From Candidatus Omnitrophota bacterium (GTDB taxonomy: Bacteria > Omnitrophota > Gorgyraeia > Gygaellales > JAQTUX01): DNA of 64,000 nt. The notes under the pieces are model-generated. The model saw nothing but the letters and a program-made list of their open reading frames with translations. It was not told where the DNA came from and searched no databases. Shown here one piece after another: positions 6,571 to 58,100 of the stretch. The translations under genes were made by a program, and so were the position numbers. The stretch covers positions 336,355-400,354 of the forward strand of contig JAQTUX010000002.1 in NCBI GenBank assembly GCA_028707125.1. The letters are read 5' to 3'. The first letter of the stretch is position 1; each line of letters starts with the position of its first letter.

Positions 6571-6611
6571 CCTCTTCTGACCCTTGATTTACGGCTGGAA
6601 ATCAGACCTCA

Positions 6612-6640: not shown

Positions 6641-6651
6641 GTTAAAATACC

Positions 6652-7014: not shown

Positions 7015-7069
7015 ACGGCATCATCTCCTTTTGGCCCTGCCTGAATACAGGCAGTGAATATTCTTGTTA

Positions 7070-7098
7070 ATTATATATCTTTAGTAACCGCCTCTCAA
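7070..7098 (-). promoter_or_regulatory. Sigma70-like promoter for the PilZ gene: -35 TTGAGA (7098..7093), 17-nt spacer, -10 TATAAT (7075..7070)
   Basis: Reverse complement: cgcTTGAGAggcggttactaaagataTATAATtaacaag. It lies immediately downstream of the giant-gene stop codon (7117) and upstream of a hairpin (7034-7056) and an AGGAG SD. Confidence 0.45.
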
Positions 7099-7116
7099 GC
7101 GAAACTTATTATCCGT

Positions 7117-37100: not shown

Positions 37101-40100
37101 AGTCATCCCCTGATACCTTCTTGACTGCCGCCTCTAATAACTTGACTCGCTGAGTAATATCGGTCAAGGCGGGCGCCTTTCTCCTGAAAACCAGTATGAT
37201 CCCGCCTGCCAGGATAAGCACCGATACGACGTAACGCGCATATCTGTTCCAATCAATCTCTTCTGCCACGGGAGCAATGCTCTTAATAAATCTGTTCTTT
37301 ACCTCAATATTTTCCGCCGCGGACGGAAGGGCTTTTCTGATCTCCTCTCTCAGTCCTTCAATTACCCGGCCCTCGTCCTGGCCGTGCCGCGCCTTTAGCC
37401 CTGCGATCATGCCCCTGATATCCAACTCCCTGAAGGCCAGCCCTGCCTCGGCTATGACAGCGGGATCCTGATAGTCGCCTAACCAGACCAACAGACCGAT
37501 ATCCCAGTGTGGACTACGTTTGTCTATGTCCGCGATCATAAGCCCTGCGCCCCGAGATAAGGGGTAGCCCCCAATACCCAAAGCATCTTCCTTTTCCCAG
37601 TCAATTTTATCTCCGTATTGAATAAGGGTGTATTTACCTGCTTCTTCATTAAGCGGTTTGGCGGCGCATACCAGGACCAGCGGATTCGAAGGCGCCCCCC
37701 TGTCAATCACCCTGCGGTAGCGGGCTCCGCCGCCGACTTTAGGAGATGTCTCCATATACTCCTCTCCCCTGTGTTCACGGGGATTCGCATCCACAAGCTC
37801 AAACTTGTAATAGTCGTAATCTGTCCGGGCATCTTTGAAAGCGGCGACTGTCTGCGCCCAATTGATATGCCCCTGATAAGACCTCATGGCAAAGGTCGCC
37901 ACGACAAGGATTATCGCGACGGCCACCAGTAGTTCGATCAAACTAAAGCCGGCATCCTTACTGCTGTATGATGGAAATTTGGCTTTGAAATGCTGACTGA
38001 TCAAATAAAAGAACAGGCCTGCTGCGGCTAAAACATATGGTTCCCCACCAGCCACGGAGAGGTAAACCAGTGCCGCAGCAAGCCCTGTAATTATAAATCC
38101 TGTAAGTGCTTTCGTTTTTACCGCAAATAAAAACCCTGCGGAGCGGGATGCCTTTTTGCCGGCAGCGCCTGAGGAAGCTGCGCCGTAGCCGCGTCCATCT
38201 GTTTGACCACCGGCGGCCCTGAGACGCGTGAAAATACGGCTCAGAATATCCGCCTGCTTTGCCTCATGAAGCTCGAAGAAATAAGGATGGAGATAGACGA
38301 AGCACAGGCCGGTCTCATCAATGGTGAATGCGGCAACCGGGTTGTCGCCATCCGCAACAGCTGTCGCGGGAAAGCTCGCCGTTACTACAAAAAACAGCGA
38401 GTCCATGAGGTCGGTTACAAGGCTTATCTTATTGATCTCGTAAACCCGCGACTGCAGGGTATCATATCTGCCTTTATCAAAGCCGTCCGGGATGCTGTCC
38501 GGAGTCAGAATGCATCCTCCCGGCATTATCTCCGACCATTCAGGCCCATAGTCACACTTTGCCCGCGCCGCCGCCTCCTCGGGTACACGGGAAACAACGC
38601 CGTTTCCGATCCCGAACAACCCGGCTGACCCGGACAAGATGCCGTTGATACTATGCTCATCTATACATTTGCCCCGCTCCCTGAGTTGATCGGCAATCTG
38701 CCTGATCGTGATTCTGTCGTTAAGGCGCTTAATCGCCCAGGCCAATTCCCAGTCAATATCCGGTTTAACCCTATTCCAGAAATCCCGCCCATGTACAGCG
38801 CTGATCCTCTGCTCGTAAAACCAGTTCATGGCGTTGCCCGCCGCCAATACCGGGAACCTGTCTGCGGATATGCGCATATTTCCGTATTGGTGTGAATAGA
38901 ATCCCCTCTGACGGCTGCCCGATGCCTGCCAGGAATCGCATGGCGTAAGGCCAATACTGCCGAATAATTCCCTGAACTGCCTGTCGATCTCCTTTTCTTT
39001 CTCAACCGGCATATATTCCTGTTCCTCGCTACTCAACGTATAGTACGCGCGCAATTCCCTTATCGGAGGTAATCCGGCCAACGCGGCGATCTGCATAGCC
39101 CTGAGATATATCCTGACCGCCAGCTCCTTTCCGATCCTCATCCCCTTGGCATGGACACGGAAGAAACAGCCGTGTATGTGAACCGCGCCTCCTGCAATAT
39201 CGATAGTTCCGGCATGGCCCAAATACACCCCGTTCCAGAACAACTCCACAAAAACCGATATCCTATCCACCTCGTAACTCTTTATCTTCCAGAGTTCAAC
39301 TATGTTATGGCTGTAAGGAGCCGTTATTGCCGGGAAATCCTCACTATTCCTGCAACGAAATCCCTGGGTCTCCAAAACGGTTGTATATTGGTCAAACCGC
39401 TCTTTCCGCCAGGCAGGGTGTGTTGGTTTAGCGCCATTGCCGTTACCTGCGGGAGAACTGGCCGAATCCAAAGAGGCCTCCTCCTCTGCCGCCTTCGCCC
39501 TCCTGAAGCCGAGGAAAAGGGCGGGGGCATAGATGGCAAAACCCAGCCATGTCGCCGCTGCGGTGGGATACCAGGGAAGATAGAGTATGTTATGGGCGAA
39601 GGCGGCAATAAAACACGGCCCGGCCCAGGGGCGCATCCTGGACACCCCGGGGCAATGCCTGTTTTTTTCCATGACGAAGAACATCAGTATGGAGAACGGC
39701 GGCTGGGTAAGGCCTACCAGGATAATACGCAGGGATTCAAATTCTGGCCCGGGGAAATACCAGAACAACCATCCCAGGAAAGGCGCGAATATCAGGAAAG
39801 AGATGATAGCTACGGCGCGCATAGTGGCAAGGTCGTCGCGGCGTAGAAGCCGCCTTTCCATAGAGGCATAGTAGAAGAACGTGATAAACAAAGAGATCGC
39901 GGCCGTTGACATCTGGTCGGCAATGCCGCGGATCTTTTCATCAAGAGGGCTCCATAGTGTATAGCTCCACGGCCAAAGCCAGCTGAAAACACAGGCGGCC
40001 AGGGCAAGCATCGCCAGGATCTTGCGGAGGTTATACGGCTCTGATAAATCCCCTGCCCTCCTGCGCTCAAGATACTGCCCCAGGAAGGCCCCAACAGGTA

Positions 40101-43100
40101 TGAACATGCTCAAGCTCAGGAAGCCGCGCAATGTGGTGCTGCTGGGTATCGCGGTTATAAACCACAGGTTCAGGCAGGGATTGGGCAGGCATTGAATAAC
40201 GGAGAACGTGAGAACGATAAAGGCGGAAACTACTGCTATGAAACTATATGTCAGGACTGGCCGCGGCTGGCGAAGGAATCTCTCTCCTGCAATAACTAGG
40301 GCAGCTCCTGCAGTAAACCAAGGTATGGAAAGTAATACGGCATGGAAGACGAATGTCCCGCAAAGGAGCGAAACCGCCGTTTTTACGATCAGGTAGAAAC
40401 CGATAATAATAGGTAAAGAGGCGATGAGCAATATTGTTTTGGCAGGGCCGGACGAAGAATGGATACTAACAGACGAAGATGCGGCTGGCGGCCCGGTCGC
40501 GGGAAAGGAAGCAAAATAACCCCCCATAAGCGGTAATGCCGAATGCCTGGAACCAGTCAAGCCCATAAATAAAGGGCCTGCTGCGGCTAAAACATATGGT
40601 TCCCCACCAGCCACGGAGAGGTAAACCAGCGCCGCAGCAAGCCCTGTAATTATAAATCCTGTAAGCGCTTTCGTTTTTACCGCAAATAAAAACCCTGCGG
40701 AGGAAGATGCGCCTTTACCGGCCGGCGCAATTTGTGTGAACACATGGCGCAGTGCCCCTATCTGTTTCTCCGCGGGAAGTTCAAAGAAAGAAGGGTTCAG
40801 ATAGATAAAAGATGCCTCACCGGCTGGATCAATGGTATAGGCGACCTCGGGGCTACCCGCCTGTTTAATGGCTATTTCCGGAAACTCTGCCGCAACTACA
40901 AAAAATACCGATTCCAGAACCGCCCTTAACTTCCTGCCTTCCTCTCTGTTGATATTGTTAATGGCTAAAACCAACTCCTGTAAAGTATCGTAATGCCTTG
41001 GATTGAAGCCGTCAGGGACAATAGCTGTCAATAGTGCGCCTCCAGGCAGGGCCGGACTGGAGGAGAACCCTTCCATATTTATCTTTCTTGCCACGATAAG
41101 GTACGGCCGGCTCCCCTCATGCGCCTCATACCGCCTCCTCCATTCTGTAGCAGGATAATCCAGAGGGAACGCATCCTTCCAATATATCCTGTAAGGATAC
41201 CCTTTATACTCAAGCCAGTCCGTGAAGAACTGCGCGGGAATGCCTCCAGGGAACGACCAGGAGTCGTTATGAGAAAAGAGAAAGTACCCACCCGGCTTAA
41301 CCAGTTCGTCATAATCATTGAGGTGTTTTCTCCTGTCATTGAACAGCTCTCCCCCTTCACCTGCCGCAATATCGCAGAATGACTCGCTTAATATATCTAC
41401 GGTTCCGCTCTTGGGGTATGTTTCGTCATCACGCCGGGTTATTACTTCTAATCCGGCCCAGGAAACGGGGTTGGTGCCCCAAGTAGGACTAGGCAATTCA
41501 AAACCGAGGCGGCGCGCCGCGGGAAATGTGTTTTTGAGCCCGCGTAATAAATCTCCGTTGCCTGTGCCTACGTCAAATATAAGCCCGCCAAAAACAGCAT
41601 CGCCCATTGTCTGCTGAAGCGTGATCTTGAACATGGCGGAATGATCATCAAGTTCGTATCTGCCCTTCGGCATAATATACCAGTTGACCGCCAGGTGAGG
41701 CAGGAATGCCGCCAACGAGAACAATACCACGAACAACATCCCGGAAGGGTTAAAGTAATTTAAGGCGGCCAATAATATCGCGCTGGATATACTGATCGCT
41801 ATCTTGTCATCCGTAAATGCCTTGTTCCAATTGCCTTGCATAAGATCAATACGGCTCAAATGATTGAGATGCCACATCGGCAGGACAAACAGCAGCAGCC
41901 AACCCCACACCATAGGGCCGAAACACAAAGAACAACCCATCCAATGGTATATAGGATAACTCACCCCCAAAGTGCAACCCGCGACCCAGCCGACTGATTC
42001 TACAAACGCGGGGGCAAAGACAAACCCCCAGAAGCGGCCGAAATAGCGCTTTGCCCAGTAGTAAACCGGCAGCATCACCGGCCACATGCCGCCCTTCAAC
42101 CTAAAGCTGGCCTTCTTTTGCTCCGGAGAGGAACTTTTGGCGGATGAAATATTTCTCTCTTCTTTAGAAATAATATAAGCTTTGGAAGAATGTTCTTTCC
42201 CAAAGAAATCTACAGAACTGACATCGCAACCGGTTTTTGTCCTGAATAACATTTCAATCTCTTCCGAGCCTGCCGCTATATTAATAATTACGGCTTTCCC
42301 GCCCGGGGCAATATGAGGCGCTATTTCATCCGCGACCCTATTTAATAATCTGCCGCCATAATCAAACACGCTCCTCTCTGAATGAGCCACCGCCTCTGGC
42401 TCGGTTTCATGTGACAACTGCGGCGCATTAAAGATAATCAGACCATACTCACCTAAGCCGTTAAATAAGTCATTGACAAAAGCCTCAACCTGAAGGCCAT
42501 TACCCCTCAAGGAACAGGTCAGTAACGTATTTTGTACCGCCATTTCTAATAAATCTACAGCCGTAACCAGAGCGCCTTTAGTGGCGGCTATAAGCGCCTC
42601 TAAACCTTTCCCTGTCCCGACAATTAAAACTCTCATTCCCGGCTTTGCGTATTTATCAGCGGCTTTTGCGCTCATAACACTTGAGCAATGCATACCATGA
42701 AAAACTCCGGGCAATATTGGAATGGCGGATAATTCTGTTATTCTGATTTCTCTAAAATCGGAAAAATAACCCACAACGTCTGTGCTATGCGCTAAAATAT
42801 CTGCAAATTCTCCGTTGCTAAAAAGAGCGTAGACATGGCGGGTATTATTCAGAAAATAAAACTCTTCTTCCGGGGCCAAAAGAAATCCTATCGCTTCTCT
42901 TAAAGCTTCAGCCATAGCCATATCCAGCGAACTGCAATATGCCAAGAAATGAATGGTTGCTATGTCTTTATTACCCCGATGTAAACATAGCAATATGGGC
43001 ATATTTTTATAGCGTATCACCCTCATTGTGCCTGTAAGCGCGGTCTTCTCCGTAAGTTCAAAGGCAGTCAATATTGCGTGTTGATCTAATCCGGACAGGG

Positions 43101-46100
43101 GCAGATCCGCGGACTCAAATATTCCGCCACGCGCTGGCTGCCACTCTAATTCTTCCTCACGAATACCCAGCGTCACAAAAACGCTCCTGGCAATCGCCAT
43201 CTCCTCTTCGCTTACAGGAAAACCCGCGTCCAATAAAGCTTTTGATTCAGGCGTCAATAGTGCCGAAGAAAAAGCCGCCGCCGGACTTGAGCCATTTTCC
43301 CTGTGTATCGCCTTTGTTTTAACCAGGATGTCAAAAATCTTCTGCCCTAGTTTTTCGGGAAACTCCCCTTTTGTCTTATAGGGCTGATTATTTCTTATCG
43401 CCGCGTCGCGCCATACACTATAAATCTCGCTGAGCGGTTTGCTTTCACCTCTAAACCTTACCGTGCGGCAAGACCTTATCAGGAAACCATCAAGGTCTCT
43501 CCGGAATTCCTCTTCGGTTTCAGCCAGCTGCCCTATGCCTTTATCTTTAAGCATCTTATAAACCGCGGAATAAACCATGCCGTCCATATCGGCTCTTTCC
43601 GCGTCAAATACCATGGTTGAGATGCCCGCCTGGATCTTAACCGCACAGGCGGGGACTGCTTTAGCAAGGTATTTTACCTCATCCTCTCCTATGGCATAAC
43701 GCCCCTGTCTTTTCCTGAAAGCTGCCTTGACGATTTTCGTGCGGCTGATCCCATGCTGGATATTCTTTAAGGTCACGGGAAACTTACCGCATATAAGCTG
43801 GGCTATCGACTTGAGCGCCTCATTTCTGTCCGTATATACGAAGGCATGGCCTTTATAATAATCTTCTACTATCTGCCGGACAACCTGCGGGGCTATTTCG
43901 CCGGCAAAACTGCGCAGCTCTTTCAAGTACTGCGCGTAACAGTGGGCGATTATTAAAAGTATGGAACCACCTATGACAATAAATATTAATAGGCCGGTTA
44001 ATATAAGCACCACCCTGGTTACGGGATCATCCATCCCTGCGGCCCTCGCGTACCCGCCCGATACTCTGTCCGCTGCCATGACAAGGCCCGCGGGAAGCCG
44101 CGACAATAACTCATCAACCGGGCTGGAGCTTCCCGTTCTCTCTCTTGCGTCAGACATGATGTCTTTAATGACGGCATAAAGGTTATCGGGCCTGAAAGGC
44201 GCCTCTACCAGATCATCTATATCATATTCGCATACCTCATCCGGCAGCGTTGGGCCGTCTGCGCTTCGCTTCCTGTTAAGGAACAGCCTGATCGCATCAG
44301 CCCCATCCAGTGAAACGCTGGTAGTTTTCTCTTCGCCGTTGTCTATAATAGACATATTGACAACATATTGGATCCCGGGCCTATGCGACTTGGCCAGCCT
44401 TGCAATAATGATCTCATAAAGCCTGTTGGGGGTTTGGAATGTTCCAAGCGCCTGCCTCTTTAACCCTCTCTCAGCGCCATCATCAATAAGCAGCTCCGCT
44501 CTTATCATCGGCGGAGCATCCTGTTGAGCGGCTTGCGCATGCCGGCTGGAGATAAAATACATCCTCTTTCTCATTCTGGCGGACTCTATCCTTGAGGATA
44601 ACGCCCTCACGATATAACTCAGCGCGAAAGACCCTATTGCCAAACCTCCGATCACGATCAGCCCCTCCGCCAGGAAGTCCCCGGGCATACCGGACAAGAC
44701 GATATCTACCGCGTCCCCTGCCGCGCTGCTTGAGGAGGCGCCGGCCTGACGCGCCAGCCGCTCTGCCTCGATGCGCTCGATCTGGCTTCCCATGATCCGT
44801 ATGAGCCCCTTTGCCTGCTCTTCAATATTGCCCTGGGTCATGCCCATGCGGGTCGGGGCGCCGTTCTGCTGAGAATTGGTTATGCTCGTCGGGCCGGCCT
44901 CCTTGCCTTTCTTGGACAGGCCGCTTGAGGAAGAACCCTTAGGATACGGCTGTTTGTCAACAAGGTTAATGTACCCGGCGTTGTCCAACAATGGAAATAT
45001 ATTTTCTTTAAGGATCTTAGCGGCCAAGGCGCTGCTAAAACTATAATCTTCCAAAGAGGCGCCGCTGTTCTGATTAACCCAAAAACAGAAGGAGCCTACG
45101 GCCTTATCTCCGAGGTAGAACGTAAAAGACGCCGTCCTGTCTTTTTCATTATCGCCGGTCCCGGTCTTGCCGCCCACAATCTGTATGTTATCCCGGATAA
45201 ACTGCGCGTTTCTGCCCGTGCCTCTGTCAACCGCCGAACGCAGGCAGTTTTCCAGCAAGAGGCATATTTCTTCATTCAACACCCTGCGCTTTGTGCCCCT
45301 TCCGTCCTTCTGGAGCGCAACTTCAAAAGGCGTGCCTTCCGCAAATCTCAGGCCATCTATCCTTATTGTATCGCATAGCCATCCCTTACTTTTAATCACC
45401 GACATCAGCTTGGCTAACGAGGCGTTGTTATCTCCGGATGTCCCCAGCGTAGTACTTAAATGGGGGTTTAATTCAAAACTTCCGGCGTAACCTAATTCGC
45501 GCCACCGGCGGTTAATGACCTCAAATGCCGCCTTCTCTAATCCGTAGAACTTCCTTGCTTCATTTTCGCCGATTATCCTGGCTATCTCAACGTCACGGAT
45601 ATCTTCTAGTACGCGCACAAAAACAAGATTTATAGACTGGACAAACGCCTCTTCAATGCTCATCTGTGCAGGTAAGCCGGGGTGATTATTCTTAGGGGCG
45701 TATTCGCTTCTGCCGGTATAGAATGAAGTTTCTATTGTAGGGTATTCTCTCCTTAAAGACTCTCTTAAGACTTCAGCCAGAGAAGCCGTTGGGTTTTCTT
45801 CCATAAAGGCGCCAATCCAGTTTAAGAGAGACGTTCCGGTGTCCCTCTGGTTTTTGTTGCCGTAGATATTATTTGCGGCATATAATCCTTCCAGGTTACC
45901 TATGTATTCTTTAATTTTAGCGTCATCGCTTTGCCATAAATTATACAGCCCCTCCACCAGCCTCAAGTAATCCGTAATCACCCGTAGCTTGGAAGTAGAG
46001 CCCATAATCATTCTTCCCATATAATTATCCCGCAGGCTGCTTGTATTAACATCAACTATAACCTGGTCAAAATTATCCTCCCTCTCAAGAATAAATAGGC

Positions 46101-49100
46101 CGCATTCCACATTAGAGGCATGGGCAGTGGTGGAAAAATAATTCCCATAATTATTCTGCTGTATACCTCTGAACAACGCCCTTATTTTGGCCTCCAAGGC
46201 TACATCATAAGTTACCTGCACAGAAACATTCATAGAATTTATCTCTTCAGGCGTTGCGCTAAGGCCTGCCCATGATGCCAAGGCATCCCGCGTTTCAATC
46301 TCTCTCTGCGTCAAGTGGTAAAAATAGCTGTTGTCGCCATTGAAACTGATTAAGCCCGACAGGCCTATCCTTGAAGCGGCATCCGCCAGCTCCCCGCTAA
46401 TCAGTCCGTCTTCTTCCATACGCATAATAACGCTGTTGGCTTTATTATTCAGCGGTTCTTCAAATATTGATGCCTTCCCCGCTGCTTTTGCCCGGGCTAA
46501 ACTCCTTAGCTTGGACGGGTTGTTTATTGAAGCGCTTATAATCGCGGCTGCCTTCAGCGCCCTTGCTTTCATGGTTAGATCCTGATGTTTACCCTCCGGA
46601 AGTGTTAAATCGCGCTTCAAGGCAACCTTGTTCATGGCACAATATGTATAGAGCGCGTTTATCAGACCCCTGTTTCTTTCATCGCCAAAATATAGCGAAT
46701 TGGCGTAATGCAGGAATAAATCGCGGCGTGCGTCAATGGTATCCAGGCCGTTTTTATAAATAAACAGCCATGACCCCGCGTATTGCCTTAATTTATCAAA
46801 GGGGCCAAATGTCTTTTCTCCGCTTGAAAACTGAATTTTGTAATACTGCACCGGAATGGTGCTTGCCCCGAAACTCCCCTGCCCGGAAAGATACCAGATA
46901 GCCGCCTTAACAATACGCGGGTCTATTACTCCTGAATAATATGCGGTCTCCTGAAGCCAATACCTGTGATTTTCGGCATAGCTTACCGTATCCACAAGAA
47001 GCGGCGGTATCTCGTCAAAGGAGTTATAAATCAGATAGTCCGGCTGTAGGACTTTTCTGTTGCTCTCCCTGCCGGTCCGCTCATAAATGGTCAAGCCGCG
47101 CATAGAGAATTCCCCCTCTACAATGTATGCGCTATTTTTCCGGGGCATATCTATCTTGCGGTCAAAGGGAGGCGTTATCCCGCACTCAATAAGCGCCCTT
47201 GTAAGGGCGCCTTGATTAACCTGCTGCGATATCTTAAAATCATCGGCTTCCAGAGCTCGCATAAATATCGGTATATAGGGATAGCCCCTCTTTTTTAACT
47301 GCGATGAGCCTTCCGAGGCATCGGTCATGGTCTTGTAGAGAGCGGTCCGTCCATCCTTTAGCTCCCAGTTAATATGCCTGTTAGCCGTGCCGAAAATAAA
47401 TGCCTGAACAGGGCTATAGTAAAACTCCGAAGCGGACAGGCCTGTGAATAGAATTAAAATTATGCCTGACCGACGCAGTAAATACCAGCCGGGAAATGAA
47501 ACGGGTTTACCGGAATACCTAAGTATGAAGTAATAAAGCAGGGCCAGGCAGGCATTAACGACCAATATGCATAAAACGGTACTCGCGGAGACCGCGGTTA
47601 TCATAATAGCGATATCTTTATAACTAAGGTACGCTATATTGTCCTTCAAAAGTAGATACAAACCGTAGAATACAAATAAACTCGCTGCCGTTTCCAAAAT
47701 CAAGACGAATTTACTTCTCTTGGCTATCGTGGGGACGGTTTTTCTATCCGGGCTGCGCGCCAGCAATTCCTTCCATTTGGCAAAATCCTCTTCTGCGGCC
47801 TTGGGGTCTCCTGCTAATTCGTGGATCTTCCCGAGGTTCAGATAAACATCAGGGTCATCTGGGGCAAGCTTTGCTATGGCCTGGTTATAGGCGTTAATCG
47901 CCTCCTGGAATTCTTCCATATAGTAATAGGCATTACCCAGGGATTTATACACCGAGGCGAAAGGAGCATTCAGTGAGATTGCCTTCAGGTAATGCTCTAC
48001 TGCTTTTTGATATTCTCCCGAGCCAAAATATATTAAACCGGCATTATTGTGGTAATCGGGGTTATCCGGCAGTATATTTAATGCCTTTTCAATATCCTCT
48101 GCGGCTTTCCTGAAATTGCCTAATAGGCTGTAAATATAGGCCCTGTTGTTATAGGCGTCAGCATAATCGGGATTGGCCTTTATTGCCATAGCATAGTATC
48201 TTTTTGCCTTGCGGTACCTCCCCTTCTCCAGGCAGGTATCGGCATATTCTTTATATTGCTCCTGTAATTCGCTGTCGGCTGTAAAATGCCATTTCCACCA
48301 GTATGAGACCATTTTTTTCAAAGCGAAAAACAAAGCTGAGAATTTAGTCGCCGCGAAATGATAAATACCAATAAGGATATGCCCTGTAATTAGCGCTGCT
48401 GCCTGTAGGAGGCCGGGAAGGGAAGATATAAACGCCCCACCCTTTGCGACTCTGTCTTTTGTTCGTTTGAACCATTTGTAACCAGACCTTAGAAGTTTTA
48501 TCAGGTAAGGTAATACCATTAATGCTGCTATTATGCCTATTGCATAGTGTAGGGGCTTTGATGTAGTGATGAAGGTGTAGGTACTCCTGAAGAAGCTGTC
48601 TGCGCCCTCTTTTAACCTGTCCACCTTTTCCTGGATGATCTCTGCCAAGGGCACAGGGGTCTGCGTAGCAGTGGGGGCAGTGGTAGGCGTCAGGGTCGGG
48701 GTGGCTGTAGGTTCGGGGGTTGAGGTAGGCTTAGGGGTATTAGTTGCCGTTGGCTCTGGGGTGTAGGTTGAAGTAGATGTTGGCTTTGGTGTAGATGTGG
48801 CGGTCGACTGTGGAGTTGTAGTCGGCTCTGGAGTTGAAGTATCAGAGGGTTGGAGGGTAGATGTTGATGTTGGCTTTAGCGTAGAGGTAGGCACTGCTGT
48901 AGGAGTATGCGTTGCCTGTGGTGTAGACGTTGATGTAGGATGCGATGTAGGCGTATGAGTTGGGGTCGCGGCAGGAGTAACAGTGGTAACTTCTCTATTT
49001 CTAATCTTACCTAAGGCATATGCTGCTGCATTGCGGACATCCCAGTCTCCATCTTTTAATGCCTCTATGAGGACAGGGATAGCAGAAGGGTCGCCGATGT

Positions 49101-52100
49101 CACCTAAGGCATATGCTGCTGCATTGCGGACATCCCAGTCTCCATCTTTTAATGCCTCTATGAGGGCAGGGACGGCAGAGGGGTCGGCGATATTACATAA
49201 GGCATATGCTGCTGCAAAGCGGACACCCGGGCCCTCATCTTTTAATGCCTCTATGAGGGCAGGGACGGCAGAGGGGTCGCCGATTACACCTAAGGCCTCT
49301 GCTGCTTTATGGCGGACAGCCCAGTCTTCATCTTTTAATGCCTCTATTTTTAATGCCTCTATGAGGGCAGGGATAGCAGAGGGGTCGCCGATGTCACCTA
49401 AGGCCTCTGCTACTTTATGGCGGACAGCCCAGTCTTCATCTTTTAATGCCTCTGTAAGGGCAGGGATAGCAGAGGGGTCGCCGATGTCACCTAAGGCATA
49501 TGCTGCTTCGTAGCGGATATGCCGGTCTTCATCTTTTAATGCCTCTGTAAGGGCAGGGATAGCAGAGGGGTCGCCGATTACACCTAAGGCCTCTGCTACT
49601 TTATGGCGGACAGCCCAGTCTTCATCTTTTAATGCCTCTATGAGGGCAGGGACGGCAGGTTTGCCTATCTTAACCAATTGTGCTATGACTTCATCCGAGT
49701 CAGAAGAATTCCCTAAATTCCTCATCAATCTCCTTATCTTCTCCTCACTCACAGCAGTAGTCTCAGCCGTTACAGCTGTAATTGTAGTTAAGGAATGGGT
49801 ATTGATGGGTTGGGCAGATGTGATTGTAGATGTGGAAATTAGCAGGGTTACAGTAATTAGCAGGATAATCAGCGCCTTTTTGGCCAATTTCATCAGAGGC
49901 GGCCCATGTGTCTTAACTGCCCTCCAGGCAAGGTAGGCAAAGAGTACGCCTGCCGCCAAGATAAGTGTTTCCGCAGGATGGCTGACTATGAGCCCAAGTA
50001 TGGCTGCTGTGCTCACCGGCTCAAAGCTGCGCAGCTTGAAGTCGCCCTTGGGGAAGTGGGGCTTATGCTTCTTAGCGAACAGCTTTGCGACTCTGTCTTT
50101 TGTTCGTTTGAACCATTTGTAACCAGACCTTAGAAGTTTTATCAGGTAAGGTAATACCATTAATGCTGCTATTATGCCTATTGCATAGTGTAGGGGCTTT
50201 GATGTAGTGATGAAGGTGTAGGTACTCCTGAAGAAGCTGTCTGCGCCCTCTTTTAACCTGTCCACCTTTTCCTGGATGATCTCTGATAGAGGCACAGGCG
50301 TTGCTGTCGGTGTTGGTGTATTGACGGCTGTCGGGATAGCGACAGGGGTATTTGTCGGAGCCGGCTCAGGAGTGGAGGTTGCTGTCGGCTCAAGGGTGGG
50401 GGTATCGGTCGGCTCAGCGGTCGGGCTTGGTTTGAGGGTATTAGTTGGGGTTGGCTCAAGCGTTGCTGTCGGCTCAGGTACGAGCGTCAAAGTAGGCGCA
50501 TGAGTGGGGGTATCGGTCGGCTCAGCGGTCGGGCTTGGTTTGAAGGTATTAGTTGAGGTCGGTGTCGCTGTGAATGTCGGCTCAGGGACAGGGGTAAAAG
50601 TAGGCGTATGAGTGGGGGTGGGGATACTAGTTGGCGTCGCCGTAGAGGTCGGCGTGTGAGTGGGCGTAAAAGTAGGCGTATGAGTAGGCGTGGGCTGCGG
50701 CGTTGGGGTTATAATTTGAGTTTGAACAGAAGGCTCGTTTTGAATCTTCTTTATAGCTTCAGCGGCTGCGTCTCTAACGGACTCATCTTCATCATTCAGA
50801 AGTTCGTTAAGCACATTAAGCGCCCCTGAATCTCCGATCCTACCTAATGCATTGGCTGCGGAGCGACGGACACCCTCCTCTTTATCATTTCGTGCTGCTC
50901 CAATAAGGGCAGAAATGGCTCGTTTATCACCTACTACACCTAGAATATCTGCTGCATCTGCGCGGACAAAGGCGTCTTCCATTTCTCTAATAAAGTCGGC
51001 AAACAGACTTTTATGCTGTCTCAATATCCTGATAAGAGAGGGGACAGATCGCCTGTCCTTTATTTCCATCAATGCTTCAGACGCAGCTGAACGAAGCGTC
51101 CAGCCGCCTTCTTTTAATGCATTAATAAGTGGCTCTACTGCCTGCGCATCTTTAATTCTACCTAAGATCTTTGCTGCGTGTGAACGAATACTAAAAGACT
51201 GTTTTTTATCTCGTAATACTTTAATAAGATAGGGAACGGCCGGCTTACCAATGCTGACCAACTGTTCTCCGACCACTCCATACACACTATACTCAAGTCT
51301 CAATCTGCTTATTAGATTCTCTATTTCTTCCTCGCTGACATTGGCCGGCTGAAATGCTGTAAGTGGATCGGCTGCTTTCATTGCATCGGCGATTGCTTCG
51401 GGATATTTGCGGAGATTCTCGTAGGCAATGCCTCGGTTTCTATAGAAATCGGGTACTTTTGGGTTAATCTCTATGGCCTTAGTGTAATCAGCGATTGCTT
51501 CGGGGTATTTACGGAGTTTTATGTATATATATCCTCTATGGCTGTAGTAATCCGCGTCATTGGGCTCCAGCTTAATGGCTTCATTACAGGCCTCCAATGC
51601 CTTCTGGTAATCCTCTTGCTCACGGTATTGCGCGGCCTCACGGAAGTAGTCATTGGCTGACTTCTGCTGTTGGGAGATGATCGTTTGTTGCGATATAAAC
51701 GCGGGCATATTGCCGTATTGGGCGGGTGTGGATGCGGGTGTGGATGCCAGCAGGGTCATGATGATCAACAGGTTGATCAGCGCCTTCCTGGCGTATTGTA
51801 CTATCGGCGGGCCCCATGCCTTTATCGCCCTCCAGGCGAGGTAGGCAAAGAGTACGCCTGCCACAAAGATAAGTGTTTCTACAGGATGGCTGACTATGAG
51901 CCCAAGTATGGCTGCTGTGCTCACCGACTCAAAGCTGCGCAGCTTGAAGTCGCCCTTGGTGAAGCGGGACTTAGGAATGAGGCCTGCCGGGGATGCGGCC
52001 GCTTGTTCTGATGTCTTTTCTCCGCAGTATCTGCCCATCAGGCGCAGCAGGCCCTTTGCCTGCTCTTCAATATTGCCCTGGGTCATGCCCATGCGAAGAG

Positions 52101-55100
52101 CGTTATAAGCGGCCAGGCCGTAATTATCCGGGTGGCTCCTGCCGTAATAGTCATCGCAGGCGTCTTTGACCGCGCGCATAAACGACTCCCAGTTCGGCCA
52201 TATCTCGTTATCGCCCCAAGGCGTATTCTCATAATCAACCACGTATCCGGTGCCTCTTAATATCCTCTTTAACCCATCCCGCGCCATAGCCCTCAGGCGC
52301 TCAAACAGCACCCCGTCCAAGACCGCGATGGTCGGGGCGCCGTTCTGCTGAGAATTGGTTATGCTCGTCGGGCCGGCCTCTTTGCCTTTCTTTGAGATCA
52401 TCATGCCGAAATTGGCCCCCTGCTGAATGATCCAGGACGTCACCACATTGTGATCGTCAATGAAGAAAAGGTGGTAGCGCATGCGCGGGTCTATCGCGAG
52501 CAGCTGCTCGAACTTACGCTGCAGATTATAGCCCCACTCGTCGAACCTCCTGCCGCCGATAAGAAATACCGCCCCCCATTCTACTATAAGGTCCCTGTTG
52601 GCCGCGTCAAACATCCGGTCAAGGAACCAATCAAGGCATTTATACGGGACCATCCTGCGTACAGCCGCGATAAATGCCATATCGTAAATCCTGACGCCAA
52701 GGGCCCTGAGTTCCTCCTTTGTTATAAAGACCTTTCCGAACGCGCCGTCAAACAACTGGTCGATCAGGTATTCCTTCTGCTCCTGCTTTATCCGCAGTAA
52801 CTCCTTGATAAATTTATCCTTGTCTTCGGGCTTATGGTCCAGCGCCTCCAACAAAGCATCGGGTATGGCTACCTTAAGCCGTTTCATGTTGTTCTTAACC
52901 AGCTCCTGTATGCCTTCGCCCTGCCAGCGAGTTATGTCCGAGCCCTCGCTGTTGCCGAAGAGGTCGTCCTCAACCACCTTGCCGCTGAATTCAGCGAATA
53001 TCTCGTTGCGCAGGATCTCCGTATGGAGGGAAGAACACCCTGTGATAAAATCGCTCACCCTGCCGGTGATCCTCACCAAGTCTATGTATCCTGTTTTGTC
53101 GTGCCCTTTGGCCTTGACCATGGTATCCCTGAATTCTTCGGCTATCTTTAACACATCGAACATGTAGTCATTATAATTACGCATGCCGTCAAGGACGATG
53201 GTGTGATTGTAGTGATGCACGACTATATTGCTGAAGAACGGGTCTGTGTTATAGCCGTCGTTGACAACGCGGGGTATGGCCAGCGTAGTATTGGTTTCGC
53301 TGGTTGAGAAAATAATCCTCTTGCCTACAGGCGTTACCTTAGCGGTATCTATTTCAACCAGCGGACCGAAAGCGGTAAATCCAAGCGGCCTCCAGGACAC
53401 ATAATCTTTATCGCTCTCCGGCTCCCCTTTCCTTCCTGATTGTTCCTTGATGAAACGGAGCAGGACCCTGCGATATAACAATGTCTGCAGGGCGCGCATA
53501 TCATCGTCATCGGGATAGGCCTCTTCAAACACCTCCGGGCAATACATCCAGTATTCGTTCAGCTCGGATTCCGGATTGCAATACACCTCAACATCCACGC
53601 TGTTTTTACCGTTATAAGGCCTGGGCAATTCGATGCCGCCATATCTGGTTATCAACCTGAGACCGCCCCTTACGACCTCAATAAGCTGCGGGTCCACGAT
53701 ATCCTCTTTGAACCCCTTGATCTTTTTGGAGTAGAATATGCCCATAACGTTCAACTGTTTGCGCGCCGCGAACGGCCCGCCGTTATAACGCGAGAGCACC
53801 CTGTACCAGCCCCTTACCAGGTCGGGCTTGAAGCTGCCCAGCCCTCCGGACATAATAAGCTTGGCGATTATGCCCGCGCAACGCAGCGCCTTGCGCATAA
53901 ATCCCCTGGTGTGCTTTAATGTTATAATTAACGCCCGCAGAAACTTTATTGAAAACTCATATTCCATCTGCAGCACCCAGATATCGCTGTCTCCGATATT
54001 CTTTATCGCGTTCTGTAACTCATAATCCTTGAATGCCCTTGACCAGGCCGTATCAACAGCGTACCCCTTCATTTCATCCTGCCTGGCCTGGCCGCGGATA
54101 AGCAGGGAAACCCGGTGCTTTAATTCGGGATCATCCTCAAGTATCCTGATGAGTTTCCGGGCCCCTCGCAGGTTCGACTTGGCCTTGCCATAAACTTCAT
54201 TTAATCTCTCCAGCGTAAGCGCGAATCTACCCGCGCCCTCTTGCGGCAAGGTAAATATCTTTCCGGGTTGGCGCCCGGATGCCTCCGCGGAAGATGAAAC
54301 ATGATCCTCATCAAACAAAAGGCCTGTTGCGGCTGAAATAAATGGTTCCCCACCAGCCACGGAGAGGTTAACCACTGCCGCAACAGGCCATGAAGTTACA
54401 TATAGCCCGGCTGATCCAAACGATGATACCGGGCTGAAACCAAACCGCTGACCGGTTATTGACTCTATCGCGCTCTTAAACATCCGGAAGCTGCTCATCC
54501 CCGTGCCATCAATCCTGTCATTGATGACGAAGCGGTCAATCTTATCTGGATTATTCAGATATGCGTCCATGGCCGCGATGTTTTCTACCATCCGTATGGC
54601 AGCATTATCCTTGCCGGAGGTCATTTTACGAAGTATGCCGATATGCCGCACTCTTTCTTCCCGCCAATGTTTTAACGAGAACGGCAACATCAGTATGCTG
54701 GCTATATCCGCTATCTCTCTCTCCAGCATATTGAGCGTTTCAAGTGTCGTAGTATCAAATAACAACCGCTTTCCGCTGTTCTGCTGCCCAGCGAAGGCCT
54801 CTTTCTCCGCGGCATACTGCCTGCCGTGCCTTTCCCTGACCAGCATCAGTGCCCCGGATTGTTTTAAGGCATCAAATTCTTCCGCGCTGACCAGATGTTT
54901 ATGAGTGTCTCCGGACTTCTCATCTTGATGCGCCTGGCGGGTAGATATCTGGATGACCATGGCGAAATTATCGGGATGCGCTGCTATCAACCTGCGGCAG
55001 AAGGCCGTCTTTCCTACTCCCGAAGGCCCGATCACGGCTATTACCTTAGATGCGGCGGCGGATGAAGAGGCGCTGTTGTTCATCTCTACTTCTTCGCCTA

Positions 55101-58100
55101 TATAGTGAAGGCCGTATTTAATCTCTTCTTCGCTTAATTGGCTAAGGGGCCTGCTCAGCCCATATCTGCTATCGCCTTCTTTGCCGGAGCAAACTATATG
55201 CAGATCACAATAAAGCTTTTGTTGCTGGACGGAATATTCCAAGAACTGCATCCGGACATAAACACCATCTTTGCTATATCCCTTCCTTTCCATCACCCCT
55301 AACGCCTGTCCAAGATCAAGGCCGGTCTTACCTCTGATAACCCGTATCAGCACTCCTTTAAAATCGCCTGCCAATCCTTCAAGGGTCAAATCCTCTTTCC
55401 TGCCCTGGCCGGCCTGGAAAATGGCCTTAAGCAGAGGATGCGCGATCAAGGCGGCGTGGTTAAGATTCTCTAAAAACTCTGTCAAATCTACAAATATGCC
55501 TTTATTTCTATCAAATACGAATATTTTATTTATCCATTCCCGGGGCACATCCTGCCTGGTCTCAAATACGAGATTATCCATGCCGTTCCATTCGGGGTTA
55601 TTATTAATATTAACCTGCGCCACAACGGACAAGAAATCATCCTTGGGGTACTTGTGGAACTCACACGGCCAGAAAGCATAGTTGATCGCTTCAGCCGGCG
55701 AGACGTCAAACTCCATCAGCCATCTGGTGGCCTTCCAGATCTCAAGTCCATTAGCCGCGATCTCTTTCAGGTCACCAAGATGAAGACGCAGCCCCCTATA
55801 GGTAAATCTTTCCGGGTTATATTCCATACCGGATTTCTCAGCGATCTCACCACCGCGGTAATCACGCGGCACGCCCTTTTCATCAGCAAAGAAATAAGGC
55901 GCAAACAGCGTGTCCGGCTCGGAAGACACCCTCTCTTCAACCGATGGCGCACGGATCGCCTGAACGCTTCCTGCGGCACGGTAGGCGTTGTTTCTTTCCT
56001 TAGTATTCCACCTTCGGAATTGGACGATATAAATACCATTTTTTACCGCGAACTCTAAATTAATGGGGTATTTCAAACGGCTATACATAGCAGCCGCGAT
56101 ATGTATCAAACCGCGGACATCCTTTTCCGCGAGAGAAACGTCTGATCCGTTGATCCCAGTTCTGTCGGCTTCAAAAAAGTCCAATATATTATTAAAGAAA
56201 GAGTATTCCCAGCAATCCGCGTCCCTGTCTTCCTGCGTGCCGCCGGCCAGCCCCCTGGCGGCATTAATAAATACATTGCGGGAATCAACCAGTATAACGC
56301 CGGACGCTTCCGGGTCTATCTGGGCTTGCAAGGCGATCGCCATAGGATACTTATTCGTAGCGTCCACCGCGAAGTTGCTTGCGATGACTCCCAGCACCGC
56401 CTGAACCAGCCCATCAAAGTTTGATATGTTTGGAATGCTCCTGTAGGTTCCCGGCTGAGTGCCTGATATGTCTTCAACTTGATTTGAAGAACGCGCGATT
56501 GTAACATTACTGAAAAACTCCGCGTACTCTAACCACAAAGGCCTTAGGCGCTCCGCGACTAATTTTACTATCCTGTCTTGATACAGTAATCGTTCAATTG
56601 CCCTATACCTTTCTTCGTTACTTTCATTCTCTATGATTATTGACCCGATCTCATCGCCAAGGACCGCCATAATATCTTCATAAAGCCGGGTGGTAACAGC
56701 TATGGTGGGGACTAAGAAGAAATCCCAGAATATCCTGCGATGAAAATCATCTAATGCCGCCAGGGTGCTGGTCTTGCCTCCGATCAACTCCGGAAGCCAT
56801 ATCCCGCCTGCGAAGAAATCGATCCAGTATTGATGAGAGTTTTCTTCTTTTACGTTTTTCTGTTGCCTGTCAGATTCAGCTGCCAGATCCTTAAAGATGC
56901 CTCTTAGCTCCCGGTCATCCCTGCAAAGATGGAGCTTGATACAGTAGTCCATCTCCATCAACAAACCCCTCGCGGCAAGAAAATCATACGCGCCCCAGGT
57001 CTTCTTCGCCAATTTCATCCTGGCATCCTTAAGGACATCGTTTAATACCCTGTCCAACGCGCTGTTTCTCCCGTCGTTATATATATTGAATTTATCGATT
57101 ATTTCCCTGTCCGGATCCTGCCCCATTAACCCCGCTAAAGCGCCATATAACGAAAACTGCCTCTTAACCTCGCCATTGTGATGGAGCAGCTCCGGAAAAT
57201 TATTGATCCTGCTAAGAGCGTCTATATTCCTGTCCAGTAAATCGGTTAAATCCCTCGCCAGATCATAGAACACCGGCGCCAACAAAAATTCCAGGTCTTT
57301 TACCTTCTTGCCTTTAAGGCCGGCAAAAATAGCAAAAACCTCGGTATCATCGCCTTCTCGCAGGGCTTTATATAGCGAAAGGAATTTATCCCCTTGATTT
57401 GAAACCAGATATACCTCGCCCTTGTCTCCGTCTATCATGACCTTGTCTCGGCTATCCAACACAAAGGACCTCTTCTGAGGACATGCCTTTAACAGATAAG
57501 GGCGCCAGTTCACGGGCACATAAGAATATGTTAAGCTGTCAATCCTTGCGATCCGGCCGCTCGCGTCGGCAATAAATGGATTCGGGGACTCCTTACTGTT
57601 CAACACTTCTACGCGCGGTATCCCCAATACCCCCAGGGAAAGATTGATATGGCTGGCGATATTACCCCGGGTTTCTATTTGAATAATGCCCTTTACTCGA
57701 TCGCGATGTCTGGTTATCCAGGACAGCATCTTCTCATCAACATCATGGACCAATAAGACCACATCGCCCTTTTTGCCGAATTCCTTTACTGCGGGCCTGT
57801 CGTTCCCCGGGAGGATCTGCACCAATCTGCCGCTGGCAAAGCCGTCTGTAAGGCCCCAGCCCTGCAGTATGCGATGTATAGACACGGGTAACTCCGCCGG
57901 CCTTGTCTTTCGCGCTTCCCTAATGTCAATATCGCTCTGGGATGCCTTGTCCGGCCAGATATCTTTAACATGATGCCCTGCCTCGATTATCCTTTGTTTC
58001 AGATCAGAGGCGCTTACTGCCGAACTGCTTAAAGAAACCCCCAGTTCATATCTGTCCCTCAAGCGATTATAGAACCCTATTATCCTATACGGCTCGTCAA

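Follow-up and report, generated by a model that had tools for sequence, protein, structure and literature searches.

Two tandem HEAT-repeat membrane cassettes with a mosaic of sequence identity inside a giant Omnitrophota gene

The region at positions 48430-51990 of the window (the whole 64,000-nucleotide stretch of Candidatus Omnitrophota DNA that was analysed) contains two long units that resemble each other very unevenly along their length. The locus raises the question of how this uneven similarity arose, and whether the repeats could still lengthen or shorten the protein that they encode. The region is entirely coding and lies inside one minus-strand open reading frame (ORF) of 56.9 kb without an internal stop codon. 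The frame remains open through the approximately 12-13 nt between the first ATG and the edge of the window, and the true 5' end of the gene may lie beyond it. The giant ORF and the two phosphorylase-like fragments that it contains on either side of the repeats are as follows.

7117..63987, minus strand: giant ORF of at least 18,956 codons, frame uninterrupted, enclosing the whole repeat region
52030..52395, minus strand: phosphorylase-like C-terminal end (glycogen-phosphorylase-like module), aa 3865-3986
44785..44916, minus strand: second phosphorylase C-terminal fragment, internally deleted, aa 6358-6401 (97% and 88% nucleotide identity)

The giant protein was covered by four overlapping Pfam scans (aa 1-18,800 of 18,956, E <= 0.01). 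Matches above the gathering threshold comprise HEAT_2, HEAT_PBS, TPR_1, TPR_2, TPR_11, PFK, PPDK_N, Guanylate_kin, Phosphorylase, Transgly (GT51), GNAT, URO-D and DprA, and N_methyl is also among the domains of the ORF. A Kyte-Doolittle scan gives 52 peak windows of at least 1.6, many of them overlapping, which concentrate at aa 4030-5490 and 6438-9425. The flanking ORFs resemble transporter and PilZ genes, as judged from their sequences alone. The ABC permease adjoining the giant gene has 295 relatives, the best 80 of which are nearly all from Candidatus Omnitrophota metagenome-assembled genomes (MAGs), with identities of at most 81%. The phosphorylase-like module likewise has its nearest proteins in Omnitrophota MAGs, and sits within giant ORFs at four metagenome loci. 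The window contains no rRNA or marker gene, so this evidence for an Omnitrophota genome is indirect. The ORF is an Omnitrophota-type giant multi-domain membrane protein. Its gene carries unusually young internal nucleotide repeats, with 17 blastn HSPs in 57 kb compared with 2 across four fragments of other giant ORFs that total 74 kb. Two pieces of the phosphorylase-like end (52330-52395 and 52031-52095) recur fused at 44785-44916, and the two fragment copies flank a membrane segment of 7.2-7.5 kb that contains both of the units described below.

The repeat region encodes two tandem in-frame cassettes of 547-636 codons. Each runs from an N-module (a hydrophobic hairpin plus a transmembrane (TM) helix) through a short Ser/Thr tether, a HEAT solenoid and a Pro/Thr linker to a C-module. 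A preliminary description of this DNA had read the region as a tandem segmental duplication with a HEAT array and Pro/Thr linkers, and this structural reading was right. The features are listed in the order in which they are translated.

51706..51975, minus strand: N-module of cassette 1, aa 4005-4094
51370..51675, minus strand: three TPR repeats, in cassette 1 only, aa 4105-4206 (TPR_1 64 bits, TPR_11, TPR_2)
50725..51345, minus strand: divergent HEAT_PBS-type domain of cassette 1, aa 4215-4421 (HEAT_2 109.6 bits)
50302..50718, minus strand: Pro/Thr linker 1, aa 4424-4562 (P+T+S = 65%)
50083..50301, minus strand: C-module of cassette 1, aa 4563-4635
50068..50082, minus strand: five-codon spacer LFAKK, the duplication junction between cassettes 1 and 2
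49798..50067, minus strand: N-module of cassette 2, aa 4641-4730
49663..49797, minus strand: Ser/Thr-rich tether and N-cap helix ahead of the HEAT array, aa 4731-4775
48997..49662, minus strand: HEAT array R1-R7 of cassette 2, aa 4776-4997, seven 31-residue repeats of alphaRep/PBS-lyase type
49333..49362, minus strand: 15-nt tandem duplication in helix A of R4, translating to IEALKIEALK
48661..48996, minus strand: Pro/Thr/Ser linker 2, aa 4998-5109 (P+T+S = 71%)
48442..48660, minus strand: C-module of cassette 2, aa 5110-5182

The N-module of cassette 1 consists of a basic lead-in (KGDFKLRSFE), a 30-residue hydrophobic stretch interrupted by SHPxE, a basic loop and a second TM helix. The TPRs that follow share 31-37% identity with those at aa 5244-5390. 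Linker 1 contains tandem repeats of its own, with periods of 108, 24 and 12 nt, and C-module 1 is formed from an amphipathic helix, a TM helix (YAIGIIAALMVLPYLIKLL) and a basic stop-transfer tail (RSGYKWFKRTKDRVAK). The 16-residue loops of the N-modules carry 4-5 K/R and no acidic residues, the sequence after the second N-module helix is neutral and S/T-rich, and 13 K/R occur within the 37 residues following C-module 1. Hydropathy and charge counts, read by the positive-inside rule, suggest that each cassette crosses the membrane an even number of times (two net). The basic lead-in would be cytoplasmic, the HEAT solenoid and Pro/Thr linker would form a tethered loop on the outer side of the cytoplasmic membrane, and each cassette would end with an amphipathic helix, one TM helix and a strongly basic stop-transfer tail. 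Because the predicted number of crossings per cassette is even, gain or loss of a cassette would be topologically tolerable and leave the other ~18,000 residues unaffected. Alternatively, the first hydrophobic stretch, at 30 residues, could make a single crossing, and the HEAT domain would then be cytoplasmic.

The C-modules form a direct repeat (48442-48660 and 50083-50301; blastn E 2.5e-103) with 97.7% identity over 219 nt, in agreement with the near identity claimed earlier for 48455-48650 and 50090-50285. A tract of 203 nt is perfect (48442-48644 = 50083-50285) and all 5 mismatches fall within 48645-48658, giving a dS of 0.08 and a dN of 0.006. The same claim for 49915-50080 and 51833-51990 held only in part: the N-modules are a repeat pair (49810-50065 and 51718-51973, spacing 1908 nt) but share only 81.6% identity. 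This is ~93% over the 146 nt closest to the junction (49920-50065) and ~65% further in, the longest exact tract being 45 nt, and dS rises from 0 (codons 1-30) through 0.41 (codons 31-60) to 0.66 (codons 61-90). At the N-module pS of 0.264 the probability of ~47 consecutive unchanged synonymous sites is ~6e-7, so the identity of the C-modules is beyond that expected from protein-level constraint alone. The interiors had been described as diverged; they share no nucleotide similarity and are homologous at the protein level only, with 37-40% identity in the HEAT regions and 62% over the Pro/Thr linker and C-module. All length changes had also been expected to be in frame, and the periods of 93, 15, 108, 1641 and 1908 nt are each a multiple of three.

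The HEAT array of cassette 2 was confirmed to contain seven 93-nt copies (about seven had been counted), although the terms 'near-perfect' and 'almost identical' overstated their likeness: pairwise nucleotide identity is 75-95% with a mean of 84%, TRF matches are 77%, and no two copies differ by fewer than 5 substitutions. Exact matches between copies run to 64 nt at most. Two sequence types are present, A (R1, R3 and R4) and B (R5-R7), with R2 a hybrid. A 15-nt internal duplication placed at about 49335 proved exact (ATAGAGGCATTAAAA, twice on the coding strand), and in an AlphaFold2 model it forms a bulged 8-residue loop. The solenoid is otherwise modelled with paired helices and a pLDDT above 90. 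Pfam scores for the array are 217.9 bits for HEAT_2 (cut-off 27.7) and 156.9 bits for HEAT_PBS (cut-off 20.9), phmmer gives a match with E = 1e-100 and 55% identity to alphaRep-7, and Foldseek aligns the model with alphaRep crystal structures (4zv6_A, 4xl5_C and 3ltj) at TM 0.81-0.86 and rmsd 1.6-2.5 Å. Pooled over the seven short, non-independent repeats, pS is 0.14 and pN/pS 1.17; codon choice at conserved residues is near-fixed. In alphaRep proteins the variable residues, which line the concave binding face, are those at positions 18, 19, 22, 23, 26 and 30 (Guellouz et al. 2013, PMC3754942). These six hypervariable positions carry 48% of the pairwise amino-acid differences between the repeats (Mann-Whitney p = 7e-5). 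Since the differences fall on the ligand-binding face, the array fits a protein-binding scaffold whose surface may be diversifying or weakly constrained. It does not resemble a diversity-generating retroelement target, as the Pfam scans of the giant protein gave no reverse transcriptase domain and the inter-repeat substitutions involve all four bases.

The mosaic of identities between the cassettes (100%, 93%, ~65% and unalignable) speaks against a single recent duplication and for gene conversion acting upon an older one. We therefore consider it probable that an old cassette duplication, an ordinary type of event within an unusual gene, was followed by recent homogenization of the ends, with a young HEAT array and exposed membrane-loop cassettes, the gene conversion being read from one sequence. 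After the initial duplication the interiors would have diverged. Intragenic gene conversion or unequal exchange would later have re-homogenized the C-modules along the perfect 203 nt, and the 5' part of the N-modules earlier or partially. Unequal recombination among 93-nt units would have generated the young array in cassette 2, and slippage would have added the 15-nt duplication in R4 after the array had formed.

It is unlikely that the duplication was instead recent and that one HEAT/Pro-Thr interior was then swapped by recombination with a different such segment, present at another site in the genome or in the population. Such a swap would account for the abrupt loss of alignment at 48441/48442, directly beside 100% identity, and for the gradient at the other end. 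Both the several further high-identity repeats within the gene, suggestive of active shuffling, and the presence of giant-protein modules in differing contexts in other giants are in keeping with it. The divergence of the N-modules is graded, however, and not all-or-none, and the interiors remain collinear homologues (HEAT 38%, Pro/Thr linker plus C-module 62%). A donor is also absent from the window, the other HEAT segment there (aa 14679-14845) being just 30% identical. There is little likelihood that cassette number, HEAT copy number or the perfection of the 203-nt tract were produced by the assembler or by a consensus of multi-mapped reads. Repeats of 200 nt, like arrays of 93-nt units, are well known to cause trouble, polishing can make repeats appear identical, and the sole other trace found of this genome is a 1.3-kb Logan contig. 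Nevertheless, the ORF is open over 56.9 kb with every junction in frame, and no path other than the linear order passes once through each unique interior. An earlier concern that assemblers can collapse or expand the region is weaker than it was worded, as the distinct cassette interiors exclude a false duplication and the HEAT copies can all be told apart by 5 or more differences.

The same repeats could be viewed functionally. A dedicated contingency locus, making length or specificity variants of a surface protein in the manner of phase-variable or antigenically variable repeat proteins, would suit the inferred extracytoplasmic location, the gathering of amino-acid differences at binding positions (pN/pS ~1.2), the in-frame periods and the view of Omnitrophota as episymbionts or predators that need to bind other cells. 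It is nonetheless very unlikely: the repeats are 75-95% identical whereas contingency repeats are typically near 100%, no reverse transcriptase, recombinase or template repeat was found in the window, and four other giant ORF fragments have no such arrays. Perfect conservation that extends to synonymous sites might further suggest that the C-modules are maintained by a DNA or RNA function, such as a structured RNA, an internal promoter or a mini-element inserted twice in frame. This is extremely improbable, as neither copy has inverted repeats in or near it, the RNA fold energy equals that of shuffled sequences (z = 0.00), Rfam gives zero matches in the window, and the C-module encodes a coherent in-frame amphipathic helix, TM helix and basic tail.

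With an old duplication and later homogenization as the preferred history, the repeats could plausibly still expand or contract in frame. The perfect 203-nt tract and exact tracts of 45-64 nt elsewhere exceed any plausible minimum for homologous recombination, so recombination offers a plausible mechanism by which the gene could gain or lose a whole cassette of 547 or 636 codons, or a single HEAT repeat of 31. No homologue of the cassette ends was found among 1.84 billion representative proteins, and no orthologue or second copy of the giant gene in 5.8 billion proteins, the 1.84 billion representatives, GTDB genomes or JGI metagenomes. A bolder proposal, which we regard as quite unlikely, is that the cassette serves as a 'plug-in' loop, self-contained and neutral for the topology, whose conserved TM end-modules act as recombination handles for adding, dropping or exchanging displayed alphaRep-like binders. 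If it were true, an episymbiotic Omnitrophota cell could change how many repeats the binders of a giant envelope protein carry and which binding face they present, and the locus would be both a natural library of binders driven by recombination and a living example of giant-gene growth.

The giant proteins of Omnitrophota termed 'Archaeovorins' have HEAT, predicted to be extracellular, as their commonest domain; SecA_DEAD or SecA preprotein-binding domains together with C39 or S8 peptidase domains are described as common to all subtypes (West-Roberts et al. 2023, bioRxiv 10.1101/2023.11.21.568195). In the class of multi-enzyme, membrane-anchored giants, strict tandem repeats are reported to be uncommon and most of the repeat architecture to be of ancient origin (Nielsen & Lui 2026, bioRxiv 10.64898/2026.06.07.730766). 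The present protein resembles both in its single ORF of more than 10,000 codons, its many hydrophobic or TM segments, its repertoire of HEAT_2, TPR, PPDK_N, GNAT and sugar-metabolism domains, the placing of HEAT repeats in predicted extracellular loops and its Omnitrophota genomic context. In contrast to the Archaeovorins, it gives no Pfam match (E <= 0.01, aa 1-18,800) to SecA_DEAD, SecA preprotein-binding, C39 or S8 peptidase domains, and it differs from other Omnitrophota giants in its unusually young internal nucleotide repeats and its orphan TM end-modules. A further trait of these giants is a type II secretion-like locus upstream of the gene, where this window extends just 13 nt beyond the first ATG. 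The HEAT array itself is built like PBS-lyase HEAT-like repeats (PF03130/PF13646) and the consensus-designed alphaRep proteins (PDB 3LTJ, 4ZV6 and 4XL5), from 31-residue two-helix units in a right-handed solenoid. Unlike alphaRep, it is a natural array flanked by TM helices and a Pro/Thr linker in a giant protein, and one repeat has a 5-residue insertion in helix A.

Surface proteins with in-frame tandem repeats, such as the alpha C protein of group B Streptococcus and staphylococcal Bap, vary in copy number by recombination between essentially identical repeats. The direct repeats described here similarly have periods that are multiples of three and are probably surface-exposed, and recombination between them would preserve the frame; variation is documented for alpha C protein and Bap, whereas these repeats are 75-95% identical and known from a single assembled sequence. 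The mycolactone polyketide synthase of Mycobacterium ulcerans has near-identical domains that undergo recombination-mediated deletion, and its modules evolve in concert. Its genes share with this one a very long ORF in which near-100% paralogous stretches lie beside diverged sequence, a pattern that implies both gene conversion within the gene and a liability to deletion, although the protein family and function are different and the homogenized tracts here are short (~200 nt). Finally, Pro/Thr-rich linkers ('PT boxes') occur in secreted bacterial glycoside hydrolases. The cassette linkers are likewise of low complexity, with 110-140 residues, 65-71% P+T+S and a composition of short tandem repeats, but where PT boxes join a catalytic to a binding domain, the cassette linker would lead the chain back to the membrane.

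The interval 48430-51990 lies wholly within a minus-strand open reading frame (ORF; 7117-63987) of 18,956 codons without a stop, and in gene orientation it spans amino acids ~4000-5186 of the giant multi-domain protein. The frame is open from the first ATG to the window edge (R-S-A-W, four codons, window 63988-64000), so that 18,956 residues is a minimum although the ORF is listed as complete; the protein may truly start, and carry any signal peptide, beyond the window. The ORFs read on the plus strand of the repeats (e.g. 48983-49513, 176 aa) were discounted as genes, being the antisense read-through that a stop-poor repeat gives within a 57-kb coding frame. The composition gave no GC anomaly that would hint at a foreign origin. 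Its sole feature is the G-rich skew of the Pro/Thr (PT) linkers, which is caused by ACN/CCN codons on the coding strand.

The interval consists of two tandem in-frame units, cassettes 1 and 2, built from an N-module (hydrophobic hairpin and TM helix), a HEAT solenoid, a PT linker and a C-module (amphipathic helix, TM helix and basic stop-transfer tail):

Cassette 1, aa 4005-4635, minus strand: N-module, three TPRs, divergent HEAT_PBS domain, Pro/Thr linker, C-module
Cassette 2, aa 4641-5182, minus strand: same order without the TPRs, with a regular seven-unit HEAT array

The Pfam scores behind these domain calls are 217.9 bits for HEAT_2, 156.9 bits for HEAT_PBS, and 64 and 87 bits for TPR_1. 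The N-module of cassette 1 carries KGDFKLRSFE and then 30 hydrophobic residues interrupted at SHPxE, after which come a basic loop and another hydrophobic helix. The linker of this cassette (139 residues, 65% P+T+S) contains internal 108/24/12-nt tandem repeats, and its C-module comprises PVPLxEIIQEKVDRLKEGADSFF…, YAIGIIAALMVLPYLIKLL as TM helix and RSGYKWFKRTKDRVAK as tail. A spacer of five residues (LFAKK) joins the cassettes, the junction reading …DRVAKLFAKKHKPHFPK…. The PT/S linker of cassette 2 has 112 residues and is 71% P+T+S.

The repeats are real and far beyond chance, although the measured coordinates and identities make two adjectives of the preliminary description too strong. It had described the unit ends as nearly identical, which holds for the C-module pair (48442-48660 and 50083-50301: 219 nt, 97.7% identity, E 2.5e-103 by blastn). 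This pair contains a perfect 203-nt tract, all five mismatches falling within 48645-48658. The N-module pair (49810-50065 and 51718-51973) is only 81.6% identical overall with a longest exact run of 45 nt; identity is ~93% over the 146 nt adjoining the unit junction and ~65% further in. The other overstated adjective is 'near-perfect', applied to the array of about seven 93-nt HEAT repeats in cassette 2: seven copies are present at 48997-49662, with a pairwise nucleotide identity of 75-95% (mean 84%; TRF 77% matches). The remaining points were borne out. The unit interiors have diverged to the extent that no nucleotide similarity is left; at the protein level the cassettes are collinear homologues, with 38% identity over the N-module and HEAT region and 62% over the PT linker and C-module. 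The spacings of 1641 and 1908 nt and the periods of 93, 108 and 15 nt are all divisible by three, as expected of in-frame repeats, and the 15-nt duplication in one HEAT copy is exact (49333-49362, reading IEALK-IEALK).

Divergence between the cassettes is uneven. By the Nei-Gojobori method the C-modules give a dS of 0.08 and a dN of 0.006, and the dS of the N-modules is 0 over codons 1-30, 0.41 over codons 31-60 and 0.66 over codons 61-90. Were the two kinds of module of equal age, at the pS of 0.264 seen in the N-modules, the chance that the C-modules would keep ~47 synonymous sites in a row unchanged is ~6e-7. This value and the dS mosaic, together with the interiors lacking nucleotide similarity, rule out a single duplication with clock-like divergence. 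The simplest account that we infer is that an old duplication of the cassette would have come first, and that its ends would have undergone gene conversion or unequal exchange recently. The main alternative is a recent duplication in which one interior was replaced afterwards. It is also possible that the 203-nt tract may have been homogenized by polishing. The preliminary description had further warned that assemblers may collapse or expand the region, a risk that is smaller than suggested since both interiors are unique and each HEAT unit can be distinguished.

Other identities for these repeats were considered and rejected. The 203-nt tract is not a structured RNA, as its fold energy equals that of shuffles (z = 0.00) and Rfam has no match in the window, nor is it a mobile mini-element, as there are no inverted repeats in or near either copy. 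A DGR or CRISPR-like array is likewise rejected, Pfam scans of the giant protein having shown no RT and no Cas-like domain.

The HEAT array of cassette 2 (R1-R7, 31 aa each) closely resembles the consensus-designed alphaRep proteins (E = 1e-100), with ~55% identity to alphaRep-7 (4zv6_A). A single-sequence AlphaFold2 model of aa 4637-5003 has a mean pLDDT of 80, and >90 throughout the solenoid, and superimposes on alphaRep crystal structures with a TM of 0.81-0.86 and an rmsd of 1.6-3.0 Å. In the model the IEALK duplication, which lies in R4, forms a bulge of eight residues, where confidence falls locally, and leaves the stack unbroken. The natural hypervariable, target-binding positions of alphaRep are 18, 19, 22, 23, 26 and 30 (PMC3754942), and these six positions hold 48% of the pairwise amino-acid differences among R1-R7 (Mann-Whitney p = 7e-5). 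At conserved residues the codon choice is nearly fixed across the copies, with a pooled pS of 0.14 and a pN/pS of 1.17, which argues that the copies are young; their differences are mostly amino-acid changes on the predicted binding face. By sequence type R1, R3 and R4 belong to type A and R5-R7 to type B, and R2 is a hybrid; R3 resembles R2 in its 5' part and R4 in its 3' part. Such a mosaic would be the expected product of unequal exchange within the array. A higher-order period of 186/294 nt reported by TRF was dismissed, repeats at offset 3 being 85.8% identical versus 86.4% at offset 1 once the 15-nt insertion is removed.

Homologous recombination needs a few tens of base pairs, and the perfect 203-nt tract is well above this minimum. 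Recombination at the C-modules would delete or duplicate 547 codons and at the N-modules would change 636, and recombination between HEAT units would shift the length by 31 codons (36 across R4), in every case in frame. The predicted copy-number variation at the repeats is thus mechanistically sound. A 167-aa query across the cassette junction found no homologue among 5.8 billion proteins, and exhaustive phmmer of the junction against 1.84 billion representatives gave no true homologue, the lone match (E = 4.8e-5) being a spurious one to a WD40-like repeat protein. Protein-pattern scans of GTDB genomes and JGI metagenomes found no orthologue of aa 3600-4100. This lack of relatives is in keeping with the ~80% share of sequence singletons reported among Omnitrophota long proteins (Nielsen & Lui, 10.64898/2026.06.07.730766).

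The distribution of charge bears on how the cassettes are placed in the membrane. The segment after the C-module TM helix is very basic (13 K/R in 37 residues at the cassette junction; 7 in 20 after cassette 2). The 16-residue loop joining the two hydrophobic segments of the N-module has 4-5 K/R and no acidic residue, and past the second N-module helix comes neutral sequence rich in S/T. N-terminal to cassette 1 lie ~4000 residues with ATP-using domains (PFK, PPDK_N, guanylate kinase) and one hydrophobic segment only. By the established positive-inside rule, the first hydrophobic stretch of the N-module is best read as a predicted non-crossing hairpin. The second N-module helix would then cross from inside to outside, the HEAT and PT regions would lie outside, and the C-module helix would cross back in. 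The predicted outside location is consistent with the extracellular one earlier predicted for the HEAT repeats of Omnitrophota giant proteins (West-Roberts et al., 2023, bioRxiv 10.1101/2023.11.21.568195). Hydropathy and charge counts thus predict two net crossings per cassette, so that the remaining protein would keep its orientation if a whole cassette were gained or lost. The retained orientation would explain how such a duplication can become fixed, and suggests a simple rule: a cassette that crosses the membrane an even number of times can be duplicated with everything else in the protein undisturbed.

As a whole the giant protein contains PFK, PPDK_N, guanylate kinase, a glycogen-phosphorylase-like module, TPR, HEAT, GT51 transglycosylase, a prepilin N-methylation motif, nucleotidyltransferase, GNAT, URO-D, PRAI-like and DprA/SLOG domains, and its hydrophobic segments are concentrated at aa 4030-5490 and 6438-9425. 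Further features are as follows:

52030-52395, minus strand: C-terminal end of the phosphorylase-like module (aa 3865-3986), two pieces of which recur downstream
44785-44916, minus strand: fused second copy of these pieces (aa 6358-6401; 97% and 88% nucleotide identity)
46480-47028, minus strand: GT51 peptidoglycan glycosyltransferase-like domain (aa 5654-5836; Pfam Transgly 33.8 bits)
37882-37974, minus strand: internal type IV pilin/pseudopilin N-methylation motif (aa 8672-8702; KDAG|FSLIELLVAVAIILVVATFAM; Pfam N_methyl 26.4 bits, cut-off 21.2)
38008-38163, 40567-40722 and 54310-54398, minus strand: hydrophobic-motif repeats (by position aa 8609-8660, 7756-7807 and about 3197-3226, respectively)
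about 42220-43312 and 24676-25806, minus strand: paralogous segment of about 370 aa (aa 6892-7256 and 12728-13104)

The GT51-like domain follows closely on the cassettes and another TPR block. To act on lipid II it would have to be outside the membrane, a requirement that limits the possible topology of the helices before it. The N-methylation motif, deep inside the protein, could be a candidate prepilin-peptidase cleavage site, which is of interest given that T2SS-like loci have been reported beside Omnitrophota giant genes.

The two phosphorylase pieces are offset by 7479 and 7245 nt (7.2-7.5 kb), both in frame; their coordinates are from blastn, a MAFFT alignment having misplaced the second piece. 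The second copy retains its native continuation (…QIERIEAE…SSS linker), as in the Omnitrophota giants L082 and P0002, which suggests that the membrane segment (both cassettes, TPRs, TM helices and GT51) may have been inserted into, or duplicated out of, the end of the phosphorylase-like module. The hydrophobic-motif repeats (92% identity over 156 nt; third, partial copy 84%) encode …ALTGFIITGLAAALVYLSVAGGEPYVLAAAG…, a motif that ends a duplicated segment of about 170 aa with 52% identity. This family indicates that intragenic homogenization is not limited to the cassettes. An older internal duplication is represented by the paralogous pair of about 370 aa, whose members have 35-38% protein identity and are separated by about 5,800 residues.

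Runs of SSS or longer number 43 in the giant protein, against about 5.8 expected from its Ser content, mostly in the context [G/A]-x-SSS-[A/P/S]-x(3-8)-[Q/E]-[A/E]-GGG (e.g. GASSSAPAPPQEGSG). Examples are:

26245-26250 (aa 12580)
23548 region (aa 13479)
14090-14142
17327-17379
21399-21444

Each Pfam domain is confined to one SSS-delimited segment and often begins a few residues past the motif (SSS at 888, PFK at 899; 2974, guanylate kinase at 2981; 18265, DprA at 18272). The motif looks like a recurrent inter-module linker or possible processing site. It has no mention in the published papers on Omnitrophota giant genes (West-Roberts et al.; Nielsen & Lui), and four other giant ORFs show it weakly or not at all. 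The cassettes sit in the largest SSS-free stretch (aa 3231-6352).

The genes 3' of the giant gene are:

1982-7014, minus strand: by sequence look like PilZ, a solute-binding protein (sugar-type), an MFS transporter and two ABC permeases

Among these neighbours only the permease has Pfam support (BPD_transp_1). An exact match to a gene beside the giant gene was found only in a Logan contig of 1.3 kb (SRR22315508). GTDB genomes contain 295 relatives of one ABC permease (1982-2830); the best 80 come nearly all from Candidatus Omnitrophota MAGs, with identities of up to 81%, and many such MAGs conserve the gene at 60-81% identity. None of these 80 loci (L002-L081; best 80 of 295) has a homologous or syntenic giant gene within 10 kb, and the position of the giant gene is therefore lineage-specific. 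The phosphorylase-like module is likewise closest to Omnitrophota MAG proteins (identity ≤45-49%). This context places the gene in the published class of Omnitrophota giant membrane proteins, yet Pfam scans covering aa 1-18,800 detected no SecA_DEAD, C39 or S8 domain in it.

The intragenic duplication at this locus is thus real and well defined, its cassettes show evidence of gene conversion in recent times and of array turnover, and the gene around it belongs to a class that is remarkable and already published. The locus bears on how bacterial giant genes grow to tens of thousands of codons, and is one of the rare loci whose nucleotides still record intragenic duplication and gene conversion, as the perfect 203-nt tract, the young HEAT array and the nested flanking duplications. 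Long reads are warranted here before the length of the giant gene is trusted, and general understanding would be altered only if real population variation were shown.

Thirteen metagenome loci carry the phosphorylase-like module, four of them as giant ORFs of 4,900-7,500 codons that run off both ends of their loci. The TM-HEAT-PT-TM cassette occurs in none of these four, where unrelated sequence follows the module. For a rough comparison, these four fragments total 74 kb and have 2 internal direct repeats at E < 1e-10, neither of which reaches ≥90% identity across ≥100 nt; the 57-kb giant gene has 17 HSPs. Strict nucleotide tandems are reported in only 17% of long genes, and most repeat architecture in such giant genes is concluded to be ancient (Nielsen & Lui, 10.64898/2026.06.07.730766). 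The giant gene described here is an unusually 'fresh' example of a process of known kind.
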